A stretch of DNA of 64,000 nucleotides from Cloacimonetes bacterium SCGC AAA252-N17 (GCA_000404785.1 ASNI01000003.1:7731-71730), one strand, 5' to 3'. Positions 8,341-33,981 are shown, numbered from the stretch's first letter. Program-made: numbers and translations. The notes: generated from the letters alone by a model not told the origin.

Positions 8341-8794
8341 TTTAATTTCTCCTTTTTTTTCATTTAATCTTAAAAACATGGAATTCAAAAAAAATAACAA
8401 GTGGAAGTTATTAAATTTTCTGATTGCTATGTCATAGTATGACCCTATTTGTGAAATTTACGATTAAATAAGTTTTCATCTAACACCATCTAATATTTAT
8501 TTACTCGCTCTTTGATAATTTTTTAAATAATTTTGTCAAACTTTTTATTTTTTCCATGCATACCTTGAAGAGATGGCATTGAATACTTTTTATACTTGAG
8601 TTTAGGCATAATGGACAAAAGTTGCTTGCTATTTTAAATAGTATTCTGTCAATTTTTTTCTCAATAATTTAGTATCGGCATGAATTCTCAGTTTTGTTTT
8701 CAGGCGTGAGAACATACTTTCTATTGAATTTTTTGTATTAATAATGTGCTATCCGGGATGAGAATGGCTTATGGAATCCTAAATATGTGTGAAA

Positions 8795-9134: not shown

Positions 9135-10913
9135 TCAGGAGTTCAGTTTTTTGAGCATAAGCCGTATATCCGGAGCAAAGGTCCCTTGTGGAAACTCGAG
9201 TAAATAAGCAGTATAATATGCAAAAGCTTGTTCATTCAAACCAAGCTGGTTAAAGCAATTCGCAGTCATGAAGCACACATATTCCCTGTATGGACCATCA
9301 TTGCTTTCTAGTAATTCTCTACAAAGCTCAACAGCGGATGCATACTCTCCCTGATTAAAATAATAATCGGCAACCTGCAACTTTAGATATGATACAGTAG
9401 CAGAATCCTGAAGGACAATAGATAATTGCTCAATATCTTTATTCAACAATGCATTGTTATTAAAATACATATTTCTAAGAAGTGAAAGAGCCGCTCTCTT
9501 TACATCATCATCTGCTTGCTTGAGATGTAACTCATTATTCATTGTACGATACATTCCGGCAATATCGTTTATAAATTTGGATTCATAATCATGAGCAAAA
9601 AAATCTTTAGAAAGTGAATCTGCTGCAGAAAAATCTCCTTTGAGAAGTACTGTTTCAATACGCTTCATCTTTGCTCTTTCCTTCACATCTTTATTGTAAT
9701 GTTTATTATCAATAATTTCAGTTAATATTTTCTCACTCTTTACATAATCTTCTTGATGTAAATAGCATTGTGATAGTAATATGTTAAGCTCAGCCTTATC
9801 CGTTAAAACATTGGCAAAATCAAGCGCTTTTTCCAGGTATATTTGTGACTGCACAGGATTTTGATATTCAAAAAGCTCAAGATATGCAAGATTTTTATAT
9901 GCTCCAAAAATATATGCTGAAGGCAGCGATGCTTTCGTCTTTTGATAAAGTTCAGTAACTTTTTTATAATGCTTATATGCCTTTTCGTGATCATTAAGTA
10001 AATAATATAGCTCCCCTATCTTATTTTCCAGAAAGAGAACTGTCTGCTCATCCTTTGTAGATTTAAGTACTTCAGAAAGACATTGAATACTGAGCTTGTA
10101 CAAATTCTGTTTCTCTGAAAGGGTTGCAAGCTTTATCAAGGCATCATTACCAAGAGTTTTATATATTTCAAATGCTTGTTGATACTGACCTGCCAGAATA
10201 TAGAATTCACCGATCAGCTCCTGCAATCCTACACCCGGCTCTTTCTCATATCGATCTTCTATCGCTGTAATTATCTCTTCATAAGAAAGATTGAGCTTCT
10301 CTAATCGATAACGCACATTTTTATAGGTTTTATTGTCTAAAATATTTAAGTACTCATTCAACGCATCGTAAGATCTTTCCTGTAACTGATAAACATTAGC
10401 TAATTCCTGAGCAAATACTATTGAATTCTTTGATTCCTTTCGTGCTTTTAGATATAATTCAATAGCATCATCGTAAAGGTAATATTTTTGATATACCTTC
10501 GCGACCTGCTTGATAATCGATAAATTAACTTTAGCATTTTTGAGCATAACTTCTGCCATTTTCCTGGCTTCATCAAGCTGATTTTTCTTGATCAGTAATT
10601 CAATTCGTGTAATTTCATAGTAATTATTAGTGAGGAAATTCTTCTCATCTTCAAGAAATCTTTCAAGAGAATCGAGTTTATTTGTTCTCATATAGAGATT
10701 TATTAAGCTGCTAACTACCTGTCTGTTATGCGCAAAATTCTCAAGTAATTGTTTATATAATCTTTCGGCTTTAATAATGTTTCCCTGCTGTTCATAATGC
10801 AATGCTTCCCGAATTTTTACCTGAAGTACCGCTTGATCATCAACTGCATAGATTGTCTGTGTGAAAAGTATGACAAAACAGGTTATTGCAATGAGATATC
10901 TAATTATTTTCAT
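9135..10913 (-). CDS. TPR repeat-containing secreted protein
   Basis: 592-aa ORF with signal peptide MKIIRYLIAITCFVILFTQTIYA and repeated TPR-like helical pairs (A..Y....L........A). It overlaps the stop of the upstream gene by 14 nt. Confidence 0.8.
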   Translation of the reverse strand: MKIIRYLIAITCFVILFTQTIYAVDDQAVLQVKIREALHYEQQGNIIKAERLYKQLLENFAHNRQVVSSLINLYMRTNKLDSLERFLEDEKNFLTNNYYEITRIELLIKKNQLDEARKMAEVMLKNAKVNLSIIKQVAKVYQKYYLYDDAIELYLKARKESKNSIVFAQELANVYQLQERSYDALNEYLNILDNKTYKNVRYRLEKLNLSYEEIITAIEDRYEKEPGVGLQELIGEFYILAGQYQQAFEIYKTLGNDALIKLATLSEKQNLYKLSIQCLSEVLKSTKDEQTVLFLENKIGELYYLLNDHEKAYKHYKKVTELYQKTKASLPSAYIFGAYKNLAYLELFEYQNPVQSQIYLEKALDFANVLTDKAELNILLSQCYLHQEDYVKSEKILTEIIDNKHYNKDVKERAKMKRIETVLLKGDFSAADSLSKDFFAHDYESKFINDIAGMYRTMNNELHLKQADDDVKRAALSLLRNMYFNNNALLNKDIEQLSIVLQDSATVSYLKLQVADYYFNQGEYASAVELCRELLESNDGPYREYVCFMTANCFNQLGLNEQAFAYYTAYLLEFPQGTFAPDIRLMLKKLNS

Positions 10914-13900
10914 GCTGTATCTTTTCCAAATATTCTTTTATCAAACGATGGTACTCTTCCGGATAATTTTCATTAATATACTTTAGAATATCCCGAACTT
11001 CCATGTTTGTAGTGTCAATAATGAGATTGTCCGGCACATCCCACTGCTGTTCATCGGGTGTTTCGGATTCTCTTTTCTTGCTGTAATCCCGCTCATGGAT
11101 AGAGCGCTGAGCATCAAGCAGTCGGGAGAGGATTTTGTTCTGCTGGCGGATCACCTGCTCATCAATTATGCCCCGCTGAAGCTTCTCCACTACTTCTTTT
11201 AACTCATTCTTCAATCCCTCCATATTTCCAAGTAATTTTTCAGCTTCAGGATAATCCCGCAGCATTCGTTCAAAATTCTCCTTTATCTGCTGCTCGTTGC
11301 CTGCAATTCTGTCTATCATCCCTTGCTGCTGTGGTGTCAAGCCCTTGCCCTGTTGCAATTGGCCCATCATTTGCTCAAGCATTGCCTGGGTAAGCATATT
11401 TATCGATTGCTGCCCCTGTGACATCTGCTGAAGCTGTTGTAAAAGCTGCTGCATACTTCCACCGGAGCCCTGCGGCTGCTTGCTCTTCGAGAGCAAAAGA
11501 TCAATGATCATTAGATTCATTGCCTTAAATATTTCTTCTTTGTCTTTCTGAATATTGTAATGGCTGTTTTCAGAAATTTTTTCGAACATTCTTTCAAAGC
11601 TATTGAGTGCAATTGCAGAATGAGGAAAAAATTTTGGATCCATCATTAGAATGATCATGGGATTCTGAAAAAGCGTGTTGACCGAATTCTTGATGCCTTC
11701 GTACATGCTTATCTCTTCATCGAGAATATCATAGGTATTATAGGATTTATCAAGGAAACGCTCCTGTTTTTTGGAGAAGAAAAGCATCTCATTAAGGGTT
11801 TTCTTGAGCAATTTTTGAAACTCGGTCATGAGCGATGCCTGCATTTTCATCTGCGCCATGCATATTGAATTCCTGAGTTCAGAAAAACCAACAAGTATAT
11901 CACATTGCTTCTTTTTAACCTGCTTGTCATTAGATTTAAGCTGCTGTGTCGCCATTTGAAGCGCATTAGTCAGTTTATGCTGCGCTGCTTGTTTGAGACC
12001 TTTCTCGATCTCATTTGCGGCATTCTTTTCACTATTTTCTGCAAGCTCTTTTGCAAGTTCCTCTAACTCTTTTTTGAGCGATTCATATTTTTCATGAATA
12101 TCTGACTGCGAAGGAGCAAGTTCACTCAATTGCTGATCTTGATCAATACGTTCAGAGGTTTGCTGGTTTAACTGTTTTTGCAGTTTTTCCAGCTCTTCTG
12201 CCTGCTGCAACGCTTTTTGCAATTTCTGTTCAAGTTGAATACTCTTTAACAATTTTAAAGTTTGCTCGAGTTTTTTATTAAACTCCTCTTGTGAAAACTG
12301 GAAGTTATTCAGCGCATTTTTCATCTGATCGGGCGTGATCTTCTCTATCTGCTTTTGCAGTTCTTTCATTGCTTTTTCAAGCTCGGGAGATGAGATTTCC
12401 TTCATGATCTCATGGATCTGCTTCAATTTTTCTAAAGTTTCCTTTGCAACTGCTTTGTTTTTCTCGAGCTCATCAACAAACTTTTCATATTCTTTAGCTG
12501 CTTTTTCTGCCTTCTTAGCAAGCTCTTTTTGCTTCTTTATCACTTCCTTCAGATCTTCCTTCTGTTGCCAGTCCATCTCCTCATTTTTGAGAAATTTCCT
12601 TCTCAGTTCATCAAATTTTTCTTTGTTTTTTCGAGATTCTTCCAGCGATTCCCTCATATCATCCATATTCCCGGACTGCTGTTTTTGAATTTCTTCATAG
12701 AGCTCTTCGATCGAGGGAAATTTTAACAGGAAAATCTTTGTGTTAGAAGTATATGCTTCAGGAACAGTACAGTTATCATAAACTTTCAAATAATAGAATA
12801 TTACATCTCCAGGAAAGAGTTCCTGATCAGAAACATCGAAATTGTAACTTGCCGTGAGCGTGGTAATTCCGGTTGTGTCAATAACTGTTTTTGAGATGTA
12901 TTCACCATCATTTTTCTTGTAGAGAATTTCAATTTTTTGGATACCAAAATCATCTGAAGCGGTAAAATCAATACGTTCCTGCATGTTTTGAGCAAGGATC
13001 TTGTCCCGTGCAGGCAGGATGATCTCAATTTTTGGTGGAAGATCCTCTTCAGCAAATATAGTCCGTTCAAAAATGTTATTAGTATTTCCAAGAATATCTT
13101 TCAAATAAAAATGGTAACTTCCACTTTTCTCAACCGTAAATCCTGTCCTGTAAGTGAAATCCCCTATCTTCTCAAGTTCGTTTGTGGTGCCGTCAAAAAA
13201 GATGATCCTGTATTCAGTGAGCTCATTATTTACCGTGAGTTCTTCAATAATGTAAGTCCCCTTGATCGCAATGATCTTACCCGAGATGTCATTTTCAGTC
13301 CGATTTTTTAGTTGAGTATACGCAGGATAGAAGTAGCTTATCTGCAAATTCTTTATGATGGGTTTTTCCAGCACCAGCACCGTAAAAGTGTCCGACTGCG
13401 CAAATTTATTTGAGACCGCATAATGAAGACTGTCGGTGATATTATAGAGAACATGAGTGTTAGAGTTCATCTTCACAGTTTTCCGGCGTCTCTGCTGCTC
13501 TACGTGAATGTCATAGGATAATTCCTGATAGAAATTTCTTACTTCAATTTGCAGATTGCTTCCTTTAAGGATTGTTGTATTTCCCGTAGAAATTTTTATG
13601 AATGTGTCGTAATGCGGTGCAAATGCTGTGGGATGCAGGATCGTTTTTGCGGAGTTAGTAAGTAATACAGGATTTATGAGGAGTACAAGTATAAAAGCAA
13701 CAGAAGAAAAAAGAATGGAATGAAAGCTTTTCTTCAGTTTTATTGCAGGAAAGATAACTGAAAACTTTACCTCTGATGCTTGATTATTTGCATCATCAAT
13801 TGCTTTTTCAAGAATTTCTTGTGAATAGTGAGCTATATCAGATTGTGTTTCAAATTCAAGAGCAGAAAGAATTATCTCATTATTTTTTGTATCATATTCT

Positions 13901-14175
13901 GAGATTTTATAAGCTATTTGCTTTACAGATGGGATTGTGAAGAGAAATCTTATGATGAAAAATAGGATGACAATTCCTGCAACGAGTTTCGCGATCAGAG
14001 ACCATGTTGTGAGGGTATCATATTTCTCATAGGATAAAGTAAGAGGTTGAATGATAAATGAAAAAACCAGGAAAAGAAGTATAAGAATTGTAATCAGGTA
14101 AAGTGCATTCTCAAGCAGTGAATTGAGAACATATTTATTTCTGAAAGAGATTAAAACTTTTTTATATAAATTCAT
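10900..14175 (-). CDS. Large membrane-anchored coiled-coil protein (DUF4175-like)
   Basis: 1091-aa ORF with N-terminal hydrophobic helices, a central region and a long K/E/Q-rich coiled coil plus a Q-rich tract. The family assignment is tentative. Confidence 0.75.
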   Translation of the reverse strand: MNLYKKVLISFRNKYVLNSLLENALYLITILILLFLVFSFIIQPLTLSYEKYDTLTTWSLIAKLVAGIVILFFIIRFLFTIPSVKQIAYKISEYDTKNNEIILSALEFETQSDIAHYSQEILEKAIDDANNQASEVKFSVIFPAIKLKKSFHSILFSSVAFILVLLINPVLLTNSAKTILHPTAFAPHYDTFIKISTGNTTILKGSNLQIEVRNFYQELSYDIHVEQQRRRKTVKMNSNTHVLYNITDSLHYAVSNKFAQSDTFTVLVLEKPIIKNLQISYFYPAYTQLKNRTENDISGKIIAIKGTYIIEELTVNNELTEYRIIFFDGTTNELEKIGDFTYRTGFTVEKSGSYHFYLKDILGNTNNIFERTIFAEEDLPPKIEIILPARDKILAQNMQERIDFTASDDFGIQKIEILYKKNDGEYISKTVIDTTGITTLTASYNFDVSDQELFPGDVIFYYLKVYDNCTVPEAYTSNTKIFLLKFPSIEELYEEIQKQQSGNMDDMRESLEESRKNKEKFDELRRKFLKNEEMDWQQKEDLKEVIKKQKELAKKAEKAAKEYEKFVDELEKNKAVAKETLEKLKQIHEIMKEISSPELEKAMKELQKQIEKITPDQMKNALNNFQFSQEEFNKKLEQTLKLLKSIQLEQKLQKALQQAEELEKLQKQLNQQTSERIDQDQQLSELAPSQSDIHEKYESLKKELEELAKELAENSEKNAANEIEKGLKQAAQHKLTNALQMATQQLKSNDKQVKKKQCDILVGFSELRNSICMAQMKMQASLMTEFQKLLKKTLNEMLFFSKKQERFLDKSYNTYDILDEEISMYEGIKNSVNTLFQNPMIILMMDPKFFPHSAIALNSFERMFEKISENSHYNIQKDKEEIFKAMNLMIIDLLLSKSKQPQGSGGSMQQLLQQLQQMSQGQQSINMLTQAMLEQMMGQLQQGKGLTPQQQGMIDRIAGNEQQIKENFERMLRDYPEAEKLLGNMEGLKNELKEVVEKLQRGIIDEQVIRQQNKILSRLLDAQRSIHERDYSKKRESETPDEQQWDVPDNLIIDTTNMEVRDILKYINENYPEEYHRLIKEYLEKIQHENN

Positions 14176-14189
14176 TTATAATTCAAATA

Positions 14190-14265
14190 TGGAGCCACCA
14201 GCGGGATTTGAACCCACGACCTACTGATTACGAATCAGTTGCTCTGCCAACTGAGCTATGGTGGC
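14190..14265 (-). tRNA. tRNA-Thr (anticodon CGU), CCA encoded
   Basis: The reverse complement reads GCCACCATAGCTCAGTTGGCAGAGCAACTGATTCGTAATCAGTAGGTCGTGGGTTCAAATCCCGCTGGTGGCTCCA. The cloverleaf is canonical, with anticodon loop TTCGTAA and a GGTTCAAATCC T-loop. Confidence 0.93.
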
Positions 14266-14567: not shown

Positions 14568-15146
14568 CTACTTTGTTATAAAGTGCGTTCTCCTATATTC
14601 TTTATATCTTTTCCCAAACCAGGGACCTTCATCAAGAATTTGAAGGAAATATTCCCGATCTCCTTTTTCTTCAATAAGCTCACCGGCACCTTTTGCAAGG
14701 TCGTAATATTCTTTCCACCGATCATCATCATTCAATGCCAGAGCCCGTGCATACTCCTCATAAGCAAAGGCAAGATCAAAATCATCAAAGCCGAATTTCT
14801 CGGTAATTTTAAGACAGTTCTGGGCATGATGAAGAGCGGATTCCTTTCTTCCAAGAATTGTGTACACGTGGGCTACCATCCACTCTCCCCGCTGCATATT
14901 TATGGGCTGCCCAACGATCGACCAATGAAGAAGCGACGCATGAGCAAGATTGAGCATTGTTTCGTCTTCTTCATAGTTTCTTTCAGGCATATCAAGAAAA
15001 TTCCAGGTTCTGTTAAAGAAATCCACTGCAAATATCTGATGCGACTGCTCAAGTGTAAATTCTTTGGGCTGTACCTCTTCAGCGTCATCTGCAAAAAGAG
15101 TATATGTGCTGAGTAGAATCAAGGAAAAAACTATTATTTTTTTCAT
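14568..15146 (-). CDS. Secreted hypothetical protein
   Basis: The likely start is MKKIIVFSLILLSTYTLFA at 15146, preceded by GGAGAT. The ORF is continuous and I recognise no family. Confidence 0.7.
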   Translation of the reverse strand: MKKIIVFSLILLSTYTLFADDAEEVQPKEFTLEQSHQIFAVDFFNRTWNFLDMPERNYEEDETMLNLAHASLLHWSIVGQPINMQRGEWMVAHVYTILGRKESALHHAQNCLKITEKFGFDDFDLAFAYEEYARALALNDDDRWKEYYDLAKGAGELIEEKGDREYFLQILDEGPWFGKRYKEYRRTHFITK

Positions 15147-15298
15147 TATATCTCCAAGTTTAATTGCTGTATATTTTCCTGAAATGAACTGCATACTGTC
15201 AATTTATCGGGCTTAAAGAAAAAATCTCACTTTTAATTTGACAATTCAATTTATTCCATACCTTGTATGTATAAAATGATAAAAATCAGGAGACAGAA

Positions 15299-16120
15299 AT
15301 GACAGATATTCAGCAGGATCAGCAGGAGAAGAAAAAGGAACTCTATGAAAAAAATTTGAATAACATAAAACGAACGATCGTGGTGATGAGCGGTAAAGGT
15401 GGCGTGGGTAAAAGCACTGTTAGTGTGAATCTTGCATATTCCTTAGCAGAAAAGGGAAACAAAGTTGGCATTCTCGATGTTGATATTCACGGACCCTCTA
15501 TAGTAAAAATGACCGGTATCGAAAATAAAAGATTGGTTCATCAGGAAGGGCACTCCCCAACTCCTGTGCCAGTCTCAGAAAACCTTTTAGTGCTTTCCAT
15601 CGCATCATTACTTCAGGATCCGGACAGTCCGGTTATCTGGCGCGGACCTATGAAGATGAACCTCATAAAACAGTTCATGGAAGATATTGAATGGCCCGAG
15701 CTGGATTATCTTATTGTTGACTGCCCTCCGGGAACTGGAGACGAACCTCTCAGCGTTATCCAAATCCTTAAGAAAATTTTCGGTGTGATCATTGTTTCCA
15801 CACCACAAGAACTTGCCTATCTCGATGTACGGAAAGCTATTAATTTCGCAAAAAAATTGGAGATCCCCATTCTCGGTATTGTTGAGAATATGACCGAGAT
15901 CGTATGCCCTTACTGCGGACAGAGGATCGAGCTTTTCAAGGCAGGCAGCGGAGAAAAGGCATTAAAGGATTTCAATATTGACCTCCTTGGAAGAATTCCC
16001 TTTGATGTGCAGGTCGTGCAATCCGGCGATACAGGCAAACCCTTTATTGGTGAAAATGCAGACACAGAAGCAGGAAAAATATTCAACGAGATCACTGATA
16101 AAATTTTAGAAAAATTATAA
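15299..16120 (+). CDS. Mrp/NBP35 (ApbC-type) P-loop ATPase, Fe-S cluster carrier
   Basis: Deviant Walker A MSGKGGVGKSTVSVNLA, DVDIHGPS, LIVDCPPGTGDE and a C-terminal CPYCG motif. Confidence 0.9.
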   Translation: MTDIQQDQQEKKKELYEKNLNNIKRTIVVMSGKGGVGKSTVSVNLAYSLAEKGNKVGILDVDIHGPSIVKMTGIENKRLVHQEGHSPTPVPVSENLLVLSIASLLQDPDSPVIWRGPMKMNLIKQFMEDIEWPELDYLIVDCPPGTGDEPLSVIQILKKIFGVIIVSTPQELAYLDVRKAINFAKKLEIPILGIVENMTEIVCPYCGQRIELFKAGSGEKALKDFNIDLLGRIPFDVQVVQSGDTGKPFIGENADTEAGKIFNEITDKILEKL

Positions 16121-16146
16121 ATCCTAAAAAACAAATACATAACTAA

Positions 16147-16181
16147 GACTCCTAAGCAACGCGAGGAGTCGTATTTTTTTT
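16147..16181 (+). terminator. Rho-independent terminator after the mrp-like gene
   Basis: GACTCCT (16147-16153), 10-nt loop, AGGAGTC (16164-16170), then GTA and a T8 run. Confidence 0.75.
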
Positions 16182-16186
16182 GTAAT

Positions 16187-16253
16187 CACGAATTTATCCT
16201 GTTAAATAAAATCTCCGATTTTCCCGGAGGGATTTAACAGGGTTAACACGAAT
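16187..16253. repeat. Nested hairpin flanked by a 7-bp direct repeat (MITE-like or regulatory)
   Basis: CACGAAT (16187-16193) and CACGAAT (16247-16253) flank CCTGTTAAAT (16198-16207) / ATTTAACAGG (16232-16241). An inner CTCCG (16213-16217) / CGGAG (16225-16229) stem lies inside. Confidence 0.6.
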
Positions 16254-16340
16254 GAACACTCATAAAAAAATTCACTCTTTACTTGACAATCCTATTTGCC
16301 GTCTTAAGTTTTGAACATAAGTTCATAACAAGGAAATAAA

Positions 16341-16793
16341 ATGCCACGACCAAGAAAGATCAGACGCGTAAGCAAGCCACCAATTTGCAGTAGGTTCAAA
16401 CCCGTTGGAATACCCGCACGCCTGCTGGAAAGGGTCGATCTTTCTGTTGACGAATACGAGGCGCTCCGTCTCGCTGATTATGAAGGATTCGAGCACAAAG
16501 AAGCTGCTGAAAAAATGGGAATATCACGTCCTACCTTCACCCGCCTTATTGATCAAGCACGAAAAAAGATCGCATCAGGCATCATAGAAGGAAAAGAAAT
16601 TTCTATCGAGGGCGGCGACTTCCAATTCATACAACATATAGTACGCTGCAGAAGCTGTGGTTCGCTTTCCAACTATTCACAACAAGCACCGGTAAAATGT
16701 CCCGAATGCAATGAAGCTGACCTGGAAAATCTTAATCAATATTATCAAAGAGGACGTGGTCGCGGTCGAGGACGATGGGGGCAGGGCAGATGA
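16341..16793 (+). CDS. DUF134/UPF0251 family DNA-binding protein with extra C-terminal Zn ribbon and RG-rich tail
   Basis: MPRPRKIRRV...FKPVGIP...DEYEALRLADYEG..HKEAAEKMGISRPTFTRL is the DUF134 signature. It is followed by CRSCG...CPECN and RGRGRGRGRWGQGR. Confidence 0.85.
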   Translation: MPRPRKIRRVSKPPICSRFKPVGIPARLLERVDLSVDEYEALRLADYEGFEHKEAAEKMGISRPTFTRLIDQARKKIASGIIEGKEISIEGGDFQFIQHIVRCRSCGSLSNYSQQAPVKCPECNEADLENLNQYYQRGRGRGRGRWGQGR

Positions 16794-16832
16794 ATAAAAT
16801 TTTAAATAAATCACAATACAAGGAGGCATACT

Positions 16833-17198
16833 ATGCCACGTGGAGACAGAACTGGTCCTAACGGAATGGGACCTATGACCGGGCGAGCAGCTGGCTTTTG
16901 TTCCGGATACGACAGACCTGGCTACATGAATGCAGCAGGTGGAAGAGGTAACTTTGGACGCGGATTCGGACGAGGATCCGGCTATGGACAAGGATTTGGT
17001 TATGGTCGCGGCTTCGGACGCGGAAGAGGATTTGGTGTAGATTTTGCACCCGCTTATCCTGTTGCATATGCACCATATCCCGCGTCTGCTCAAGCAGAGA
17101 ATGAAAAAGATTATCTTGAGAACGAACTGAATATGATGAAAGAAAATATGAAGCATCTTGAAACTCGACTCAAAGAAATCAAAGCTGCAGAGAAATAG
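16833..17198 (+). CDS. DUF5320 family protein (Gly/Arg-rich, C-terminal coiled coil)
   Basis: MPRGDRTGPNGMGPMTGRAAGFC N-terminus, GRGFGRGSGYGQGFGYGRGFGRGRGFG tract and a C-terminal heptad-like LENELNMMKENMKHLETRLKEIK. A strong AAGGAGG SD is present. Confidence 0.85.
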   Translation: MPRGDRTGPNGMGPMTGRAAGFCSGYDRPGYMNAAGGRGNFGRGFGRGSGYGQGFGYGRGFGRGRGFGVDFAPAYPVAYAPYPASAQAENEKDYLENELNMMKENMKHLETRLKEIKAAEK

Positions 17199-17219
17199 TA
17201 ACCTTATCAGCTATTCATT

Positions 17220-17284
17220 CCACAAAGGACTCAGAGTTCATGGAGAAAGTTTATATGACTCTGTGCTCTCTGACTCCTCTGTGG
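17220..17284. repeat. Long imperfect hairpin between the two DUF5320-type genes
   Basis: CCACAAAGGACTCAGAG (17220-17236) pairs with CTCTGACTCCTCTGTGG (17268-17284) at 15 of 17 positions, with a 31-nt loop and no T-run. Confidence 0.5.
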
Positions 17285-17303
17285 TAATAACTTAGGAGTT
17301 TTT

Positions 17304-17600
17304 ATGCCAAGAAGAGACGGTACAGGTCCGGAAGGTCGTGGTCCCGGAACAGGTCGAAGAAACGGTAGTTGCTTTGGTGCTTTCACAAAGAAAGATGGAA
17401 GCATCTCTGTATGGCGCACACTTGTCATACCTGCTATCGGTGCGATCATAAATGACCTTCGTAAACCAGACAGCATTTCACGAAAAACCGTGAATGCAAT
17501 TGTAAATAAAGTGAAAACAAAACAGATCACAGATAAGAGAAAACCATCTGCGGAAGTAGAAGGCACTTATTCAGTGATCGATACTGAAAAAGGAGAATAA
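17304..17600 (+). CDS. DUF5320-like protein with divergent C-terminal half
   Basis: MPRRDGTGPEGRGPGTGRRNGSC N-terminus matching the DUF5320 motif. AGGAG SD is present, and a hydrophobic segment WRTLVIPAIGAII follows. Confidence 0.7.
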   Translation: MPRRDGTGPEGRGPGTGRRNGSCFGAFTKKDGSISVWRTLVIPAIGAIINDLRKPDSISRKTVNAIVNKVKTKQITDKRKPSAEVEGTYSVIDTEKGE

Positions 17601-17601
17601 C

Positions 17602-17796
17602 ATGCCAAGAGGAAACGGTCAAGGCAGAGGTGTGGGTGGAGGACAAGGACAGGGTCGCGGACAAGGTGGCAATTTCCCGGGTCCCGGCGGTTACTGCGTA
17701 TGTCCTTCTTGCGGGTACAAAGAAACCCATGTGCAAGGTGTTCCCTGCATGAACAAAACCTGCCCCAAATGCGGCGCAAAAATGGCACGAGAATAA
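17602..17796 (+). CDS. Gly/Arg-rich protein with C-terminal CxCPxCG...CPKCG zinc ribbon
   Basis: MPRGNGQGRGVGGGQGQGRGQGG then GGYCVCPSCGYKETHVQGVPCMNKTCPKCG. The ATG is 1 nt after the preceding TAA, with AGGAGA SD. The same module ends ORF 25750-26235. Confidence 0.75.
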   Translation: MPRGNGQGRGVGGGQGQGRGQGGNFPGPGGYCVCPSCGYKETHVQGVPCMNKTCPKCGAKMARE

Positions 17797-17821
17797 AAAA
17801 TAAAATACATTAGGAGATCTG

Positions 17822-18187
17822 ATGCGGATAGTAATTTCTACAGAAAATGGAAACGTAGCTCAACATTTCGGACGATGTCCTGAATTTACACTTGTAGATA
17901 TCGAAAACGGAGTTTTAGAAAAAAAAGAAATCGTCCAGAATCCCGGACATGCGCCAGGTGTACTTCCAAAATATTTCAATCAATTAGGGTGTAAGATCAT
18001 CATAGCAGGTGGTATGGGTAACAGAGCACAGGAGCTATTCAGGACCTATGACATGGACTGGATAATCGGTGTGCAGGGTGATGTTGACTCTATCATAGAT
18101 GACTATATTGAAGGCACAATCACAGCAGGCGACAGCATGTGCGAACACGGCGAAGGAAAGGGACCCGGAACCAAAAAGTGGGATTAA
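17822..18187 (+). CDS. NifX/NifB-C-terminal family (dinitrogenase FeMo-cofactor-binding fold) protein
   Basis: MRIVISTENGNVAQHFGRCPEFTLVDIENG...IIIAGGMGNRAQELF, a typical NifX-like pattern. Confidence 0.85.
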   Translation: MRIVISTENGNVAQHFGRCPEFTLVDIENGVLEKKEIVQNPGHAPGVLPKYFNQLGCKIIIAGGMGNRAQELFRTYDMDWIIGVQGDVDSIIDDYIEGTITAGDSMCEHGEGKGPGTKKWD

Positions 18188-18204
18188 CATTATTTTTAAT
18201 ACTT

Positions 18205-18846
18205 ATGAAAATTACTATTATTTTTGATAATACTGCCTACGATCCTGACCTTCAACCTTCATGGGGATTCTCGGCACTCATTGAGATCAATGAGAAAAAA
18301 ATCCTCTTTGATACCGGCGACAATGGCGATATCCTGATGTCAAATATGAAAAAACTTGGTATCGATCCTATTGACATTGATGCTGTTTTCATCTCTCATA
18401 ATCACTACGATCACATCGGTGGATTGTCCTCATTCCTCTCTGAAAATAATGATGTAACACTTTATATCCCACCCTCTCTTCGAGGAATTCATAACGTGAA
18501 AGAACGTATCTATGTTGATAAACCGGCAGAGCTGTATGAAAATATATATTCCACTGGTGAGCTTGCCAATGTCGAACAATCCTTGGTCGTAAAGACTGAA
18601 AAAGGATTGGTCATCATTGTTGGGTGCAGTCATTCGGGAGTGGAACAAATCTTGGAAACAGCGCGACAATTCGGCGAACCCTATGCACTCATCGGTGGGC
18701 TTCATGGTTTCAAAAAATATTCTGTACTCGAACCGCTTACATTTGTGTGCCCTACCCATTGCACCGAGTACATCAAAGAGATAAAAAAGCGTTATCCTGA
18801 AAAATATATCGAAGGCGGAGTAGGAAAAGTAATCGAAATTGAATAA
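18205..18846 (+). CDS. MBL-fold metallo-hydrolase
   Basis: FISHNHYDHIGGL (HxHxDH motif). The start is MKITIIFDN at 18205. Proteins of this type are commonly found next to NifX-like genes. Confidence 0.8.
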   Translation: MKITIIFDNTAYDPDLQPSWGFSALIEINEKKILFDTGDNGDILMSNMKKLGIDPIDIDAVFISHNHYDHIGGLSSFLSENNDVTLYIPPSLRGIHNVKERIYVDKPAELYENIYSTGELANVEQSLVVKTEKGLVIIVGCSHSGVEQILETARQFGEPYALIGGLHGFKKYSVLEPLTFVCPTHCTEYIKEIKKRYPEKYIEGGVGKVIEIE

Positions 18847-18875
18847 TAGAAAAATCTTTCAGAAAAGGAATACCT

Positions 18876-20060
18876 GTGAATAGAAAAAGTTTAACCTCAA
18901 AACGTGTGAGTTCAATCAGCAAATCAGCTATTCATGAAATGACACGACTCTCAAAAGAGATCGAGGATGTCGCATTTCTTTCGTGGGCAAAACCAACTTC
19001 GGGAACACCCAAGCATATAAATAAAGCTGCAATCGAAGCAATAGAAAAAGGTCTTGTTGGAGGATATTCACCAAGTGACGGACTGCTGGAACTGAGAAAA
19101 GAAATTGTGAAAAAGTTAGCTCGGGATAACAATATTATTGCAAATCCGAACCAGATATTAGTGACTGTCGGCGCGATCGAAGGCATCGCTTCTGCAGTAA
19201 TGGCAACCGTCGATCCGGGAGATGAAGTTATCGTGCCCTCCCCCACATATTCCACTCATGTACGGCAGGTGCTTCTCGCATCTGCAAAACCGGTTTTCGT
19301 ACCTCTACATGAAGATGATGAATTTGCTTTTCATATTGAAGATATCAAAAAAGCGATAACTCCGAAAACAAAAGCAATACTCTTCTGCAGTCCAAACAAT
19401 CCGACAGGATCAATATTCCCTGAAGAAACTCTTAGAGAAATTGCTCAAATCGCTATCGAAAACAATCTTGTGATCATTACGGATGAAGCATACGAGTATT
19501 TTGTGTATGATGGAAATAAGCATTTCAGTATTGCTTCAATTCCGGAAGTTCAAAACAATGTGATATCCTGCTACACTTTTACAAAAACCTATGCAATGAC
19601 GGGCTGGCGGATAGGTTATCTTCATGCGCAGGAAGCGGTGATCCCTCAAATAAAAAAAGCACATATTCCTTTTGCGATCTGTGCGCCTGTAATCTCTCAA
19701 TATGCAGCTTTGGAAGCATTGAGAGGTTCACAAAATTGTGTAGATGATTTCCGTTCTCATTACAAATCCGCACGTGATCTTATGTGCAACCGACTCGACC
19801 GGCTCGAGAATATTTTTTCTTATGTAAAACCAACCGGTTCGTACCTGATGTTCCCAAAAATTCTTCTCGATGAAGGCAAGGATTCAATAGATTTCTGTGT
19901 AAATCTACTGCAAAAAGCAAAGGTTTCAACAACGCCTGGTATTGCTTTCGGACCTACAGGGGAAAGTCATCTGCGCTTATCTTTCTGCGTTGATGAAGAC
20001 ATGATCAATACTGCATTTGACCGCATGGAAAAATATTTTTATCATGGAGGTAAGAAATGA
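18876..20060 (+). CDS. PLP-dependent aminotransferase, class I/II (aspartate aminotransferase-like)
   Basis: NPNNPTGS-type motif (SPNNPTGSIF), the TFTKTYAMTGWRIGY lysine motif region and a LRLSF C-terminal motif. GTG start. Confidence 0.85.
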   Translation: MNRKSLTSKRVSSISKSAIHEMTRLSKEIEDVAFLSWAKPTSGTPKHINKAAIEAIEKGLVGGYSPSDGLLELRKEIVKKLARDNNIIANPNQILVTVGAIEGIASAVMATVDPGDEVIVPSPTYSTHVRQVLLASAKPVFVPLHEDDEFAFHIEDIKKAITPKTKAILFCSPNNPTGSIFPEETLREIAQIAIENNLVIITDEAYEYFVYDGNKHFSIASIPEVQNNVISCYTFTKTYAMTGWRIGYLHAQEAVIPQIKKAHIPFAICAPVISQYAALEALRGSQNCVDDFRSHYKSARDLMCNRLDRLENIFSYVKPTGSYLMFPKILLDEGKDSIDFCVNLLQKAKVSTTPGIAFGPTGESHLRLSFCVDEDMINTAFDRMEKYFYHGGKK

Positions 20061-20449
20061 TCCATCATGCTGGACTCACCATCACCGATCCTACTGATAT
20101 AATTAATTTTTATCAGGACATACTCGGTCTGAAGATTAAAAAAGAATTCACTCTTAAAAAAGAGCTCAATCAACAATTATTTGGTTTCTATGAAGATGTC
20201 CCAGTGACCATGCTCTCAAATGGTAAAGCAGATATCGAGATTTTTGTTACAGACCTTCCTGCCAGAAATAATTATTCTCACCTGTGTATCGAAGTAGAAG
20301 ATAGAAACGAAATCATTAAAAAGGTTAAAGAAAAAAACTATAGCCATACGGTTATCGAAAGAGATCTTTACCCGCTTGTATTTATTCAAGATCGATTTGG
20401 CAACTGTTTCGAGATAAAACAAAAAATCAAAGTAGAGAATGTATCATGA
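20057..20449 (+). CDS. VOC/glyoxalase-family protein
   Basis: MIHHAGLTITDP...HLCIEV...FIQDRFGNCFEI pattern. Its start overlaps the upstream stop (ATGA) and its end overlaps the next gene. Confidence 0.7.
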   Translation: MIHHAGLTITDPTDIINFYQDILGLKIKKEFTLKKELNQQLFGFYEDVPVTMLSNGKADIEIFVTDLPARNNYSHLCIEVEDRNEIIKKVKEKNYSHTVIERDLYPLVFIQDRFGNCFEIKQKIKVENVS

Positions 20450-21306
20450 AAATAGCAATTGCAAGTGGAAAAGGCGGTACAGGTAAGACCACTCTTGCGA
20501 CGAATCTTGCCCATCTCCTTTCTCAGAAATTCCCTGTTATTCTCGCAGATCTCGATGTAGAAGAACCCAACTCCGGATTTTTCATTAAAGGGAATAAGAT
20601 ACGGGAAAAAAAAGCTTTTAGAATGATCCCTGAATGGGATAAAGATAAGTGTGTACTTTGCGGTAATTGCCAGCGAGTATGTAAGTTCAATGCAGTTATA
20701 AAATTGGGAGAAGAGGTGTTGGTTTTCAATCAACTGTGCCATGGTTGTTATGCATGCTCGGAGCTGTGTCCGCAAAATGCCCTACTCATGAAATCTTTTG
20801 AAGTGGGAAAGATCACAGAATTCAGAAAGAATGATTTGCATTTTTTAGAAGGAAAGCTCAATGTCGGCGAAGAACAGGCAGTGCCTGTGATCAAGAGAAC
20901 ATTAGAATATGTTGAGCAGAAATTTTCACCTGATATACTACGAATTTTTGATGCACCCCCAGGGACTTCCTGTCCTGTGATCGAAGCGACGAAAGATGCT
21001 GATTATATTATTCTCATCACCGAACCGACCCCCTTTGGATTGCATGATCTCAAGCTGGCTGTAGACGTTATGAGAGAGTTGAAAAAACAATGTGGCGTTG
21101 TCATAAACCGTTATGGTATTGGAAACGATGATGTGATACGTTATTGTAAAAAAGAACGTATCCCTCTCCTCGGTAAAATTCCTAATATGAAAAGAGCGGC
21201 AGAAACCTATGCAAAGGGTGGATTACTTTCTGAAACTATACCTGAGATCAGGAATTCCTTTGAAAAAATTATCGAGAACCTGCGAACTTTGGAGGTGCTG
21301 TCATGA
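20446..21306 (+). CDS. MinD/CooC-superfamily P-loop ATPase with inserted 2x[4Fe-4S] ferredoxin domain
   Basis: IASGKGGTGKTT Walker A, then CVLCGNCQRVC and CHGCYACSELCP cluster motifs. Confidence 0.88.
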   Translation: MKIAIASGKGGTGKTTLATNLAHLLSQKFPVILADLDVEEPNSGFFIKGNKIREKKAFRMIPEWDKDKCVLCGNCQRVCKFNAVIKLGEEVLVFNQLCHGCYACSELCPQNALLMKSFEVGKITEFRKNDLHFLEGKLNVGEEQAVPVIKRTLEYVEQKFSPDILRIFDAPPGTSCPVIEATKDADYIILITEPTPFGLHDLKLAVDVMRELKKQCGVVINRYGIGNDDVIRYCKKERIPLLGKIPNMKRAAETYAKGGLLSETIPEIRNSFEKIIENLRTLEVLS

Positions 21307-22184
21307 AAGAAATAGTGATCATTTCAGGTAAGGGCGGCACAGGTAAAACCTCTATCACTGCTGCGTTTGCAATGCTTGCTGGCAACGATGCCGTTATAGC
21401 AGACTGCGATGTGGACGCTGCTGATATGCACCTTCTTCTTCAACCGGATTTCTCACAATCAGAAGATTTTTATTCCGGCTTCAAAGCAGTGATCGATCAA
21501 TCATTATGTATAAAATGTGGGAAATGCCAGAAGATATGCAGATTTGATGCAATAAAAAATATCAATGACTCTTTCAATATAACACCTCTCGATTGTGAAG
21601 GATGTGGCTACTGCGCCGAAATATGCCCTGTAAAAGCAATACAAATGGTAGAGCAGAATGTCGGCAAATGGTATATTTCAAAAATAAAGAGCGGTACTCA
21701 CATGGTGCATGCGAGACTCGGTATTGGTGCTGATAATTCCGGGAAATTGGTCGCGAAAGTCAAAAAAGAAGCAAAGAATGTTGCCCAAGAAACAAGCAAG
21801 GATATTATTCTTGTCGATGGCTCTCCCGGTATTGGATGTCCTGTAGTATCTTCTTTGTCCGGTGCTGATTATGTAATTCTTGTTACTGAACCTACACTGT
21901 CCGGATTTCATGACATGAAGAGAGTGTTTGAACTTATTCAAAATTTCAAACTTCCATCAGGCTGTATTATAAACAAGTATGATATAAATATTGAAATCGC
22001 AGAGAAAATACGCGATTTTTGTGAGAAAAATTCGATAGATCATATTTCAAATCTTCCTTACGATGAGAGCTTTACTGTCGCAATGACACAAGGAAAAACA
22101 ATTATTGAAAGCAATTCCGAAACCTTGAAAATTATTTTAGAAGATAGTTGGAAAAAGATAATTAAGCTCACGGATTTTCACTGA
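21303..22184 (+). CDS. MinD/CooC-superfamily P-loop ATPase with inserted 2x[4Fe-4S] ferredoxin domain (paralogue)
   Basis: IISGKGGTGKTS Walker A, then CIKCGKCQKIC and CEGCGYCAEICP. There is a 4-nt overlap with the preceding paralogue. The last codons (KLTDFH) are encoded by a repeat arm. Confidence 0.88.
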   Translation: MKEIVIISGKGGTGKTSITAAFAMLAGNDAVIADCDVDAADMHLLLQPDFSQSEDFYSGFKAVIDQSLCIKCGKCQKICRFDAIKNINDSFNITPLDCEGCGYCAEICPVKAIQMVEQNVGKWYISKIKSGTHMVHARLGIGADNSGKLVAKVKKEAKNVAQETSKDIILVDGSPGIGCPVVSSLSGADYVILVTEPTLSGFHDMKRVFELIQNFKLPSGCIINKYDINIEIAEKIRDFCEKNSIDHISNLPYDESFTVAMTQGKTIIESNSETLKIILEDSWKKIIKLTDFH

Positions 22185-22799
22185 TGAACACAGATTTTAT
22201 TCCTTATTTAAAAAAAATATTTTCAGTAAAATGTTCCAATTTTCAGATACATCTTTAAAAAATACATATATATTATTAGAAATGGCAACAATAAAAAAGC
22301 TATATAATTCTAAACCGCGTTTATCTGCGTAAACCAGTGATCTATAACATGAAATATAAAGAACTTAGTTCAAAAATCATTCAAGCTTTTTACAATGTAT
22401 ATAACACTCTTGGATACGGATTCCTTGAAAAAGTGTATGAAAATGCAATTCTGATCGAACTAAGTAAAATGTGTGTGAATTGTTCTAGACAAGTTCCTAT
22501 CAGCGTCATATATGGAAATGAAATTGTTGGAGAATATTACGCAGATATACTTGTTGAAGATAAGATCATTCTTGAATTAAAAGCAATCAAAACTTTAACA
22601 AAACAAGATGAAGCACAACTTCTCGCATATCTAACCGCAACAAATATTGAAGTAGGTCTTCTCCTTAATTTTGGCGAGAAACCAGAGTTTATAAGAAAAA
22701 TATATGATAATGACCGAAAGAAATATACACCAATTAACACTAATACTGATGAAACAACCTAATAATTTTATCAGCGCTCATCCGTGTAAATCCGTGAGC
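22166..22799. repeat. Inverted 12-bp repeat bracketing the GxxExxY gene cassette
   Basis: GCTCACGGATTT (22166-22177) and its exact reverse complement AAATCCGTGAGC (22788-22799). There are also related direct 18-mers, ATCTGCGTAAACCAGTGA (22323-22340) and ATCCGTGTAAATCCGTGA (22780-22797), matching at 14 of 18. Confidence 0.6.
22349..22762 (+). CDS. GxxExxY protein (PD-(D/E)xK-like family)
   Basis: GYGFLEKVYENAL-type motif (GYGFLEKVYENAILIEL), YYADILVEDKIILELKA, and AQLLAYL...GLLLNFG. Confidence 0.85.
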   Translation: MKYKELSSKIIQAFYNVYNTLGYGFLEKVYENAILIELSKMCVNCSRQVPISVIYGNEIVGEYYADILVEDKIILELKAIKTLTKQDEAQLLAYLTATNIEVGLLLNFGEKPEFIRKIYDNDRKKYTPINTNTDETT

Positions 22800-22822
22800 C
22801 AAAAAAACAAAATGGAGAAAAA

Positions 22823-23152
22823 ATGAAAATCGCATTTACAACAAAAGGAAAAGAATGGGACTCCCCTATGGATCCCAGGTTTGGAAGAACAGAATATTTT
22901 CTTATTTATGATGAAAAAAACGACGAACTGACCTCAATTGATAACACTGATATCAATGAAGTTGCGCATGGTGCAGGTCCCCGTACAGCTCAGAAACTTT
23001 TTGAACAAAAACCCGATGTGTTGATCACCGGCAATGGACCTGGTGGTAATGCTGCGATGGCTCTCCAACAAGGAAATATTAAAATTATTACTGGTGCTGG
23101 AACAATGACAGCAAAACAAGCTTATGAGGCTTACAAAAACGGTACATTATAA
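22823..23152 (+). CDS. NifX/NifB-C-terminal family protein
   Basis: MKIAFTTKGKEWDSPMDPRFGRTEYFLIYD...VLITGNGPGGNAAMAL. Confidence 0.85.
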   Translation: MKIAFTTKGKEWDSPMDPRFGRTEYFLIYDEKNDELTSIDNTDINEVAHGAGPRTAQKLFEQKPDVLITGNGPGGNAAMALQQGNIKIITGAGTMTAKQAYEAYKNGTL

Positions 23153-23158
23153 TTGTTT

Positions 23159-23302
23159 ATGAAATTCAACGTCGCCTTTGCCACAGATGATGGGAAAACA
23201 TTTATTGGTCGTCATTTTAGCGATGCACTCTTTTATGATATTTATGAACTTGGGAGCAAAAAAATTGATCAAAATGCGGATGAAATAATATGCCACAAAT
23301 AA
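23159..23302 (+). pseudogene. 47-codon 5' fragment of a NifX-like gene (paralogue of 24063-24455)
   Basis: MKFNVAFATDDGKTFIGRHFSDALFYDIYEL aligns with MEKIRVAFATDDGKTFMGRHFGDARFYDIYEL. The frame then ends inside the start of the TauE gene. Confidence 0.6.

Positions 23303-33629: not shown

Positions 33630-33981
<352 letters not shown>

Follow-up and report, generated by a model that had tools for sequence, protein, structure and literature searches.

The window analysed here is a stretch of 64,000 nucleotides (64 kb) from Cloacimonetes bacterium SCGC AAA252-N17, and our subject is a run of four consecutive open reading frames (ORFs) at 16341-17796, together with the gene cluster in which they lie. 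An earlier note on this DNA had pointed out that all four predicted proteins start with Met-Pro-Arg (MPR), that they carry Gly/Arg-rich low-complexity tracts, and that the ORFs have good Shine-Dalgarno sequences and a gap of one nucleotide at the last junction. The N-termini, repeat strings, ribosome-binding sequences and spacing that it gave are correct, and the ORFs are as follows.

16341-16793 (+): ORF1, 150 amino acids (aa), N-terminus MPRPRKIRRV, C-terminal end RGRGRGRGRWGQGR
16833-17198 (+): ORF2, 121 aa, N-terminus MPRGDRTGPNGMGPMTGR, internal tract GRGFGRGSGYGQGFGYGRGFGRGRGFG
17304-17600 (+): ORF3, 98 aa, N-terminus MPRRDGTGPEGRGPGTGR, no RG repeat
17602-17796 (+): ORF4, 64 aa, N-terminus MPRGNGQGRGVGGGQGQGRG

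Each start codon is preceded, at 6-7 nt, by a purine-rich Shine-Dalgarno-like sequence (AAGGAA for ORF1, AAGGAGG for ORF2, TAGGAG for ORF3 and AAGGAG for ORF4), and the stop codon of ORF3 (TAA, 17598-17600) is one nucleotide away from the ATG of ORF4 (17602). Comparison with two relatives (loci L001 and L008) gave ratios of nonsynonymous to synonymous substitution (dN/dS) of 0.05-0.24 for each compared ORF, and the same gene order recurs in Cloacimonadota contigs; the best matches are named Candidatus Cloacimonas, Cloacimonetes or Celaenobacter. Since selection and gene order agree in this way, ORF1-4 are real genes, each of them subject to purifying selection. The stretch that holds the four ORFs has a GC content of 46.4%, where the window as a whole has 37.5%; this difference results from the load of Gly (GGN) and Arg (CGN) codons and does not point to a foreign origin. 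The Gly/Arg-rich tracts are present as described, but a tripeptide count found no RGG in any of the four proteins; the repeats are of the GRGxG type, with GRG occurring six times in ORF2, three times in ORF1, twice in ORF4 and once in ORF3. The tract-bearing proteins have isoelectric points (pI) of 9.3-10.1.

ORF1 belongs to the DUF134/UPF0251 family (Pfam PF02001; 97.5 bits against a cut-off of 27, E = 7e-28, residues 3-95). In its AlphaFold2 (AF2) model (predicted local distance difference test, pLDDT, 84.8; predicted template-modelling score 0.75), helices 36-47, 52-59 and 63-83 form a helix-turn-helix (HTH) whose recognition helix begins at R63. This HTH superposes on region 4 of SigR/SigD and on the DNA-binding domain of DeoR, the latter taken from an operator-bound structure, to 0.7-1.3 Å over 40-50 residues, and the profile match to DeoR (7BHY) is 5.6e-6, in keeping with the prediction already made for DUF134. 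Residues 94-130 form a Cys4 ribbon (C103, C106, C120, C123; invariant in alignment A6), and residues 138-150 are an RG tail, disordered in the model. The N-terminus is predicted to be folded and not disordered, with residues 4-34 ordered, two short strands included, and packed against the rest of the domain. It carries the conserved DUF134 segment xRPxKxRxV...FKPxGxP; this segment and the HTH are traits of the whole family, and the Cys4 ribbon and basic tail are found in the subfamily too. We collected 759 homologues, and in 72 of the best 120 the last 22 residues are at least 40% Arg plus Gly. The family is listed as COG1342, 'predicted DNA-binding protein', with function, operator and structure unreported. 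ORF1 is a probable DNA-binding regulator.

ORF2 is a full-length match to DUF5320 (PF17253; 92.5 bits against a cut-off of 27, E = 4e-26). It opens with the N-terminal motif MPRGDRTGPNGMGPMTGRAAGFC (the sole cysteine is C23), continues with a cationic, aromatic and glycine-rich GRGxG tract that includes a Pro/aromatic stretch (residues 24-88), and closes with a heptad coiled coil (L95, L99, M102, M106, L109, L113, I116). An exhaustive search returned 4,098 representative DUF5320 clusters at 50% identity (E <= 1e-3), so that such tracts, previously thought rare in bacteria, are not rare within this family. The family motif MPxGDxTGPxGxGPMTGRxxGxCxG always starts at residue 1 and has M1, P2, G8, G13, G17, R18, G21 and C23 invariant; the tract spans about 60 residues (medians 28% Gly, 12% Arg/Lys, 18% aromatic, 10% Pro, pI 10.4), and exactly one Cys is present in 117 of 150 representatives. 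The Gly/Arg-rich tracts are thus conserved among orthologues as a compositional feature. N-terminal position, single Cys, GRGxG tract and coiled coil are family traits that ORF2 possesses. A search of the DUF5320 profile against sequences in the Protein Data Bank (PDB) found no solved relative; we judged its best match, the mitochondrial ATPase inhibitor IF1 (E = 0.0026), to reflect coiled coil and composition. Some representatives (P0044, P0073, P0089 and P0156) have the N-motif twice in succession: a short version, MPGFNGTGPxGxGPxTGxGxGxC[VI][VI], comes first, and about 20 residues on there is another that also opens with Met-Pro. These could be real duplications, or an upstream small ORF fused in during gene calling.

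ORF3 and ORF4 share with ORF2 the N-motif but not the other two features, and the Pfam model does not cover their C-terminal modules. ORF3 matches positions 1-28 of PF17253 (30.3 bits, cut-off 27, E = 1e-6); its N-motif (residues 1-25, with C23) is followed by a lineage-restricted part with a conserved hydrophobic segment, SVWRTLVIPAxGAIINDLRKPDS, and all 19 homologues keep both. We did not adopt ORF3 as a membrane protein, the hydropathy being under the usual transmembrane threshold. ORF4 matches no Pfam family at cut-off and gives no PF17253 match at E <= 0.1. Its residues 6-27 are a disordered, Gly/Gln/Arg-rich and degenerate N-terminus of DUF5320 type, and the remainder is a Cys6His ribbon with two CPxCG knuckles (C32, C34, C37, H43, C49, C54 and C57, invariant in the family; AF2 pLDDT about 75-85). 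A fold search with the ORF4 model against the PDB returned nothing significant, the matches being generic zinc-ribbon or rubredoxin-like ones with E > 0.1. The family comprises 22 homologues and 37 more from the loci described below (alignments A1 and A7). In most lineages ORF4-type proteins begin MPRGDGTGPxGQGPGTGRG, and 11 of 18 members match PF17253.

Alignment of family profiles with hhalign related ORF3 to DUF5320 at 96% over 25 columns and the broad ORF4-type alignment to DUF5320 at 96.6% (E = 7e-10) over the N-terminal 21 columns; with the narrow ORF4 alignment A1 the match was weak (26%), and the relationship emerged only with the broader one. The earlier note took the four ORFs for one related set. 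For ORF2-4 the profiles support this, with a common N-motif, MPxGDxTGPxGxGPxTGR..C, set before three different C-termini, and ORF4 is best described from its alignments as a relative of the N-motif and not a full DUF5320 member; ORF1, at 3% against DUF5320, falls outside the set. The MPR start does not unite them either. Exactly four of the 232 six-frame ORFs of at least 50 aa in the window begin with MPR, and these are ORF1-4, so the clustering is beyond chance. However, in DUF5320 it is M1 and P2 that are invariant, with R3 in only 72 of 150 representatives (others start MPG, MPA, MPF, MPW or MPL), whereas in DUF134 it is R3-P4 that are conserved and P2 that varies (among 120 sequences, 41 MPRP, 22 MRGP, 10 MSRP and 8 MTRP). 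A common origin was rejected on the 3% hhalign probability. Since R3 varies in one family and P2 in the other, and the profiles are unrelated, MPR is, as judged from these alignments, a coincidence of two unrelated conserved N-termini and not a conserved shared motif.

Conserved neighbours and natural fusions

The four genes lie within a same-strand array whose other members, several of them iron-sulfur (Fe-S) cluster proteins, are as follows.

15299-16120 (+): Mrp/NBP35-type P-loop ATPase of the Fe-S carrier type (Pfam ParA/NUBPL, 8e-96), just upstream of ORF1-4
17822-18187 (+): tail-less NifX-like (Nitro_FeMo-Co) carrier (Pfam PF02579, 2e-17)
18178-18846 (+): metallo-beta-lactamase-fold protein (Pfam Lactamase_B, 1e-13), start inferred from the 222-aa L001 orthologue
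20446-21306 and 21303-22184 (+): two overlapping genes for MinD/CbiA-type, Orp3/Orp4-like ATPases (Pfam CbiA and Fer4, inserted 2x[4Fe-4S])
22337-22762 (+): PD-(D/E)XK_3 family gene, between the MinD-like pair and the ORP-like NifX gene
22823-23152 (+): NifX-like orange protein (ORP) homologue (Pfam PF02579, 3e-14; PDB 2WFB, 2.4e-11; 1RDU, 3.5e-12)
23290-24033 (+): TauE/SafE-family membrane protein (sulfite exporter type), between the second and third NifX-like genes
24063-24455 (+): third NifX-like gene (Pfam PF02579, 2.5e-6)

An aminotransferase gene and a glyoxalase-fold gene lie between the metallo-beta-lactamase gene and the MinD-like pair, and the third NifX-like gene is followed by genes for a methyltransferase, a DUF1684 protein and a ferredoxin. 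Against the NCBIfam model MrpORP (NF041136), the Mrp gene scored 361.7 bits over positions 1-251, under the 450-bit cut-off and corresponding to the N-terminal domain, and the NifX-like protein at 17822-18187 matched positions 265-364, the C-terminal domain; the latter also matches PH0822 and TM1290 in the PDB. The three NifX-like proteins of the window (121, 109 and 130 aa) have no cationic glycine-rich tail. At the corresponding places in L001 the PD-(D/E)XK_3 and TauE/SafE genes are missing. L001 has, between its Mrp gene and DUF134, an extra 129-aa gene without a Pfam match (6448-6837), and the equivalent interval of the window (16121-16340) is non-coding.

This arrangement can be compared with the ORP cluster of Desulfovibrio vulgaris Hildenborough, which comprises Orp3, Orp4, Orp5, Orp8 and Orp9/MrpORP, with orp7 first in orp7-8-9 (PMC6345978, PMC8359166), and whose definition includes two MinD-like ATPases with two [4Fe-4S] motifs, Orp3 and Orp4 (PMC6345978). 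The window matches it in the Orp3/Orp4-type pair, in an Orp8-type NifX-like subunit (22823-23152, by 2WFB), in an ATPase of the Mrp/NBP35 kind, and in the small gene that comes first, before those of the carriers. It differs in that MrpORP, fused there, is here split between the Mrp gene and the NifX-like gene at 17822-18187, and in that the two divergent operons are replaced by a single same-strand array. There the cluster has a sigma-54 promoter and the activator OrpR, whereas the window has a sigma-70-like promoter with a palindrome and no adjacent sigma-54 activator; such activators do occur in 17 of the 80 related loci described next. The product of the small first gene, Orp7 (DVU2107), is presumably a DUF134 protein. 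The ORP papers examined list no gene like the three of DUF5320 type for that cluster.

We scanned one genome per species, which yielded more than 573 DUF5320 loci, and analysed the best 80; these represent more than 15 bacterial phyla as well as Asgard, Woesearchaeota, Bathyarchaeia, Thermoplasmata and other archaea, and total 922 kb. Their six-frame ORFs were searched with profiles seeded from the window proteins. NifX-like proteins were found in 62 of the 80 loci, Orp3/4-like (MinD-like/ferredoxin) ATPases in 55, ORF4-type ribbons in 38, Mrp/NBP35 in 35, DUF134 in 24 and the metallo-beta-lactamase fold in about 17; P-loop ATPases of either kind were present in 62. In loci of at least 12 kb the figures rose to 35 of 40 for NifX-like proteins and 36 of 40 for P-loop ATPases, and these neighbours are almost always on the same strand as DUF5320. 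The suggestion that the motif would be found next to NifX-like genes in other genomes was therefore upheld. NifX-like genes are also the closest neighbours, with a median gap of 204 bp from DUF5320 (within 200 bp for 38 of 99 DUF5320 genes), against 1,004 bp for Orp3/4-like genes and 2,356 bp for Mrp. All-against-all clustering of the neighbours added radical SAM proteins (20 loci), sigma-54 activators (17), methyltransferases (13), FmdB ribbons (13), Fur (12), pyridine-nucleotide disulfide oxidoreductases (12), ARMT1-like proteins (11) and TrmO_N (9). Two distant loci reached through ORF4 homologues begin with Fur, and one of them, L004, also has FeoA and ends in FeoB.

The same modules were found joined in single polypeptides, as follows.

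NifX-like, (GMGRG)n and DUF5320 coiled coil: loci L004, L006, L035, L061, L066, L076
NifX-like and Gly/Arg tail only: L068, L075, L081
NifX-like and ORF4 ribbon: L049, L081, L083
DUF134, Gly/Arg linker and ORF4 ribbon: L036, L037, L045, L055, L072; P0269, P0293, P0304, P0307, P0308
DUF134 and NifX-like: L021, L026
DUF134 and N-motif protein: P0250, P0260
ORF4 ribbon and 2x[4Fe-4S] ferredoxin: L042, L069, L084

These fusions tie ORF1-4 functionally to NifX-like carriers, even though ORF1 is not homologous to ORF2-4. Gene context and fusions together bear out the idea that the four proteins are organised around the neighbouring NifX-like and ATPase proteins, at the level of a functional link. 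New here are the synteny and fusion network of DUF5320 across two domains, the family of Cys6His ribbons of ORF4 type, and the predicted operator of DUF134 together with the covariation in specificity (below). In L004 (2292-2654) and L006 (4603-4965) we also observed a third kind of head on a DUF5320-type coiled coil, a Trp/Pro-rich N-terminus (MxxRHRWMYxxTGLPGWMRFGFSPGW...), encoded beside a NifX-coiled-coil fusion and a canonical DUF5320 gene. Three neighbouring coiled-coil proteins suggest a hetero-oligomeric hub in these loci.

A predicted operator for DUF134

Two elements were recognised ahead of ORF1.

16283-16310 (+): putative promoter of sigma-70 type for the ORF1 operon, with TTGACA (16283-16288) and TAAGTT (16305-16310) 16 nt apart
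16312-16325 (no strand assigned): 14-bp palindrome TGAACATAAGTTCA, just after the -10 element and about 16 nt 5' of the ORF1 start codon

The promoter was assigned by eye as a candidate. A scan for consensus promoters and terminators over 15100-23300 gave counts no higher than in shuffles and did not list the conserved block 5' of ORF1. In the relatives L001-L003 and L008, conservation starts abruptly at TTGACA and runs through the palindrome to the Shine-Dalgarno sequence, while the DNA further upstream is fully diverged. The palindrome is the sole perfect TGAAC-N4-GTTCA in the window and is invariant in the relatives.

Across the 922 kb of the 80 loci, the strict pattern TGAAY-N4-RTTCA occurs 36 times, and 26 of these sites fall within 160 bp upstream of cluster genes (71 kb), where 0.23 +/- 0.5 were expected. 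The upstream density, 0.364 sites per kb, is about 30 times that in the remaining DNA (0.012 per kb). Most sites precede a DUF5320 (12), DUF134 (4) or NifX-like (4) gene, and Archaea have them as well as Bacteria. Of the 24 loci with DUF134, 11 contain such a site, as do 6 of the 56 that lack DUF134 (Fisher p = 0.0009). DUF134, Fur and sigma-54 activators, found in 24, 12 and 17 loci respectively, are almost mutually exclusive (overlaps 2, 1 and 0), and a search for the operator in the Fur-headed loci L004-L007 found none.

Base five of the half-site and the residue that opens the recognition helix of DUF134 vary together. Proteins with Arg at this position (..ISRPTF..) accompany TGAAC at six sites, and those with Gln (..ISQPT..) accompany TGAAT at 16. 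The exceptions are one Gln with TGAAC and three Arg with TGAAT; two of these three come from L038, which has both types of paralogue and both types of site. GC content overlaps between the two groups and does not account for the covariation. The pairing follows the expected chemistry, in which Arg reads G and Gln reads A. Because of the upstream enrichment, the association with DUF134 and this covariation, DUF134 is the probable factor binding palindromes of the TGAACATAAGTTCA class, and sequence-specific DNA binding and regulation by the family can be inferred from the comparison. The position of the predicted operator over the -10/start region suggests autorepression. In terms of specificity, R63 is predicted to read C:G where Gln reads T:A, and an R63Q variant would be expected to prefer TGAATATAATTCA. 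At L063, about 64 bp upstream of its DUF134 gene (6821-7273, minus strand), there is a 37-bp perfect palindrome, GTCATATGTTCAAAATAGAATATTTTGAACATATGAC, which holds two inverted TGAACATATGAC units and may be a double operator.

Proposed function of the cluster

In composition, the tract of ORF2 resembles the tail of IssA. This Fe-S storage protein of Pyrococcus furiosus joins a NifX-like IPR003731 domain to a disordered tail of 70 aa that contains 15 Gly, 14 aromatic, 7 cationic and 11 Pro residues and the only Cys of the protein, with a pI of 10.7 (PMC5524996). In the model proposed for it, this tail wraps around anionic thioferrate, (FeS2-)n, and drives nanoparticle formation, and an uncharacterised mesophilic 'IssX' clade has glycine-rich tails as well (PMC5524996). 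IssA-type proteins are defined by an IPR003731 domain and a tail in one polypeptide, with a pI of at least 9, few Cys, and at least 20% Gly in the C-terminal 40 residues (PMC5524996 supplement). In ORF2 the 65 residues 24-88 comprise 19 Gly and 13 aromatic residues, 7 Arg/Lys and 5 Pro; their pI is 10.1, and the sole Cys, C23, stands just before them. The likeness to the tail of IssA is thus close in composition and pI. In IssA domain and tail are fused, whereas in the window they are on separate polypeptides; related loci encode NifX-like domains fused to (GMGRG)n tails, some of which continue into the DUF5320 coiled coil. The conserved N-motif and coiled coil of DUF5320 are not described for IssA. 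Thioferrate binding and Fe-S nanoparticles mark the IssA type, and for DUF5320 proteins thioferrate is a hypothetical ligand. In gene content the cluster is a variant of ORP/IssA-type systems, made of genes from catalogued but uncharacterised families.

Our preferred interpretation, to which we give about even odds, is as follows. ORF1-4 would open a conserved, anaerobe-specific operon for handling Fe-S or other metal-sulfide clusters, its other parts being the Mrp/NBP35 ATPase, the three tail-less NifX-like carriers (one of them the orange-protein homologue) and the two MinD-like ATPases with ferredoxin inserts. ORF1 would be the transcription factor of the operon and most likely a repressor; it would bind as a dimer to TGAACATAAGTTCA, a site that lies across the -10/start region of the ORF1 promoter, and Arg63, at the start of the recognition helix, would read the C:G pair in each half-site. 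The Cys4 ribbon is a likely metal or cluster sensor; in other lineages a NifX-like domain or an ORF4-type ribbon takes its place or is attached to it. The basic RG tail probably raises affinity for DNA. The paralogous ORF2-4 each pair a portable Gly/Pro N-motif, which in ORF2 and ORF3 holds one invariant Cys, with a flexible polycationic tract, and differ in their C-terminal module, namely a dimerising or trimerising coiled coil in ORF2, a hydrophobic segment in ORF3 and a Cys6His metal ribbon in ORF4. Since the fusions place such tracts on NifX-like domains and the NifX-like proteins of the window are tail-less, ORF2-4 most likely serve as adaptors in trans for the neighbouring carriers, supplying the function of the tail. 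The GRGxG tracts would hold anionic Fe-S species by electrostatic attraction, be it a thioferrate-like polymer or other anionic metal-sulfide clusters, in the manner suggested for the IssA tail. Multivalency may come from the coiled coil, and alternative anchoring from the ribbon and hydrophobic modules.

These results bear on Fe-S storage and traffic in strict anaerobes and on the role of the ORP complex. They tie two large families without experimental function, DUF134 and DUF5320 (the latter with some 4,100 clusters at 50% identity), to NifX-like/ORP/Mrp clusters in two prokaryotic domains. Two testable hypotheses follow, one that DUF134 acts as a transcription factor on a defined 14-bp operator through a predicted specificity residue, the other that the GRGxG tracts, eukaryote-like as they are, bind anionic metal-sulfide species, as proposed for IssA, and not nucleic acid. 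If they are true, Fe-S storage or transfer of the thioferrate type would extend from one archaeal order to most anaerobic phyla, and bacteria would have a low-complexity sticker-spacer protein with an inorganic client.

Several observations weigh against this interpretation. The likeness of the ORF2 tract to the IssA tail is compositional, and the strict conservation of the N-motif (M1, P2, G8, G13, G17, R18, G21 and C23) suggests a specific partner or ligand, for which a purely electrostatic model is insufficient. Most of this motif is lost in the ORF4 of the window, and 10 of the 80 loci have DUF5320 without a NifX-like or ATPase neighbour. The window contains a single operator site, next to a promoter recognised by eye; six operator-bearing loci have no DUF134 in the stretch examined; and the core GAAC-N4-GTTC equals what we take to be the LexA box of Gram-positive bacteria, so another bacterial factor could bind. 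The literature searched for DUF5320, DUF134/UPF0251/COG1342 and the motif strings held no functional account and no biochemical work on any protein of either family.

We regard as doubtful a more far-reaching form of the proposal, in which DUF5320 proteins are trans-acting IssA-like tails that make a protein-mineral condensate with the NifX-like and MinD/Mrp proteins, under the control of a cluster-sensing DUF134 with a cross-domain operator. By way of the Cys-bearing N-motif and the coiled-coil hub, DUF5320 proteins would cooperate with these partners in the nucleation, storage or transfer of anionic iron-sulfide polymer (thioferrate) or of other metal-sulfide clusters, and the system would range across a vast span of anaerobic Bacteria and Archaea, Asgard included.

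A partner peptide is a serious rival for the role of the N-motif, if an unlikely one. It would dock on dimers of the Mrp/NBP35 and MinD-like/ferredoxin ATPases, regulating or recruiting them, with the C-termini of ORF2-4 as modules for cargo or localisation. N-terminal peptides of ParB/Spo0J, MinE and McdB act on ATPases of the ParA/MinD type, and McdB and ParB, like DUF5320, have a short N-terminal motif and genes that adjoin those of ParA/MinD-family ATPases. The DUF5320 motif is always at the extreme N-terminus, is portable over three C-terminal architectures and sets an invariant R18 in a flexible Gly-rich context, and P-loop ATPases are as frequent at the loci as NifX-like proteins. A disordered N-terminus with a coiled coil resembles McdB and IF1, the IF1 match being weak and probably compositional. 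MrpORP and Orp3/4 have been reported as polar or MinD-like (PMC6345978). However, the nearest and commonest neighbour of DUF5320 is NifX-like and not an ATPase, and in the fusions it is the NifX-like domain that replaces the N-motif; no fusion of the motif to an ATPase was seen among the loci studied. The invariant Cys, moreover, has no counterpart in known partner peptides of ParA. Adjacency statistics thus favour NifX-like proteins as the partner.

Less probable again is a reading of the RG/GRGFG tracts as low-complexity domains of RGG/FG type, which would make ORF2-4 scaffold proteins that bind nucleic acid or, with RNA, form condensates. Nucleic-acid binding had been raised for all four proteins. 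For ORF1, as a protein of DNA-binding type, it is predicted; for ORF2-4 the support came from composition alone. The tracts are indeed cationic, aromatic and glycine-rich in proteins of high pI, ORF1 is itself RG-tailed, and pairing a coiled coil with a tract of stickers and spacers is an architecture typical of condensates. Eukaryotic RGG/FG domains, McdB and the N-terminus of ParB share with DUF5320 a glycine-rich tract with Arg/aromatic stickers, predicted disorder and a coiled coil; the resemblance is one of architecture, without RGG, a nucleic-acid gene context or a sequence relationship. In a scan of the Methanosarcina mazei proteome, DUF134 and DUF5320 proteins scored for an RG-rich motif like those that bind G-quadruplexes (PMC7565180). 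Against this, RGG tripeptides are absent from all four proteins, and there are no recurrent RNA-binding, helicase, RNase or ribosome-related neighbours; the recurrent ones handle Fe-S or metals, with Fur, FeoA and FeoB in L004. The same tracts are fused to NifX-like cluster-binding domains, and the published non-nucleic-acid ligand for a cationic Gly/aromatic tail on such a domain is thioferrate (PMC5524996). Gene context, fusions and the precedent of the IssA tail therefore make metal-sulfide handling likelier than nucleic acid for ORF2-4, and nucleic acid as their ligand is probably wrong.

There is a small chance that the palindrome is read by another factor, such as a LexA-type repressor, with DUF134 having another target or not being a sequence-specific regulator. 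The core presumably corresponds to the Gram-positive SOS (Cheo) box, and the loci without DUF134 are 6 of the 17 with an operator. The gene context is not that of an SOS response, though, and the same motif class stands upstream of the same families in Archaea, which have no LexA. Loci with DUF134 have the operator more often than those without, the half-site base changes along with the first residue of the DUF134 recognition helix, even in the locus that holds both paralogue and site types, and the Fur-headed loci have no such palindrome, all of which argues for DUF134. Finally, that MPR is a common signal for N-terminal processing, targeting or degradation of all four proteins, DUF134 included, is very improbable: the start is shared by four of four consecutive genes and by no other ORF of the window, and Met-Pro N-termini are substrates for methionine removal, but R3 and P2 vary in the respective families, the profiles are unrelated and the DUF134 N-terminus is predicted to be ordered and packed on the fold from residue 4.

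Other features of the window

Upstream of the cluster, the opposite strand contains a 2,507-aa ORF (877-8400) and a 1,091-aa ORF (10900-14175). The latter has a long central region that is Glu/Lys/Gln-rich and coiled-coil-like, and L001 has a 1,412-aa LTD-domain protein at that place. An Rfam scan of the whole window found only three structured RNAs, all ordinary housekeeping ones, and no riboswitch near the cluster.

14190-14265 (-): tRNA-Thr(CGT)
33630-33981 (-): transfer-messenger RNA (tmRNA), tag peptide ADENLALAA
54486-54906 (+): RNase P RNA, class A (231.6 bits)

One further RNA structure was found by folding between ORF2 and ORF3.

17196-17306 (+): intergenic stem-loop, -31.7 kcal/mol, z = -3.45, with 0 of 200 shuffles as stable

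It occupies the 105-nt gap between the two genes, pairs partly with the Shine-Dalgarno region of ORF3 and is not followed by a run of T. It is partly conserved in the relatives, with insertions and deletions, and might set the ratio of ORF2 to ORF3/4 expression or be an element of mRNA processing or stability.

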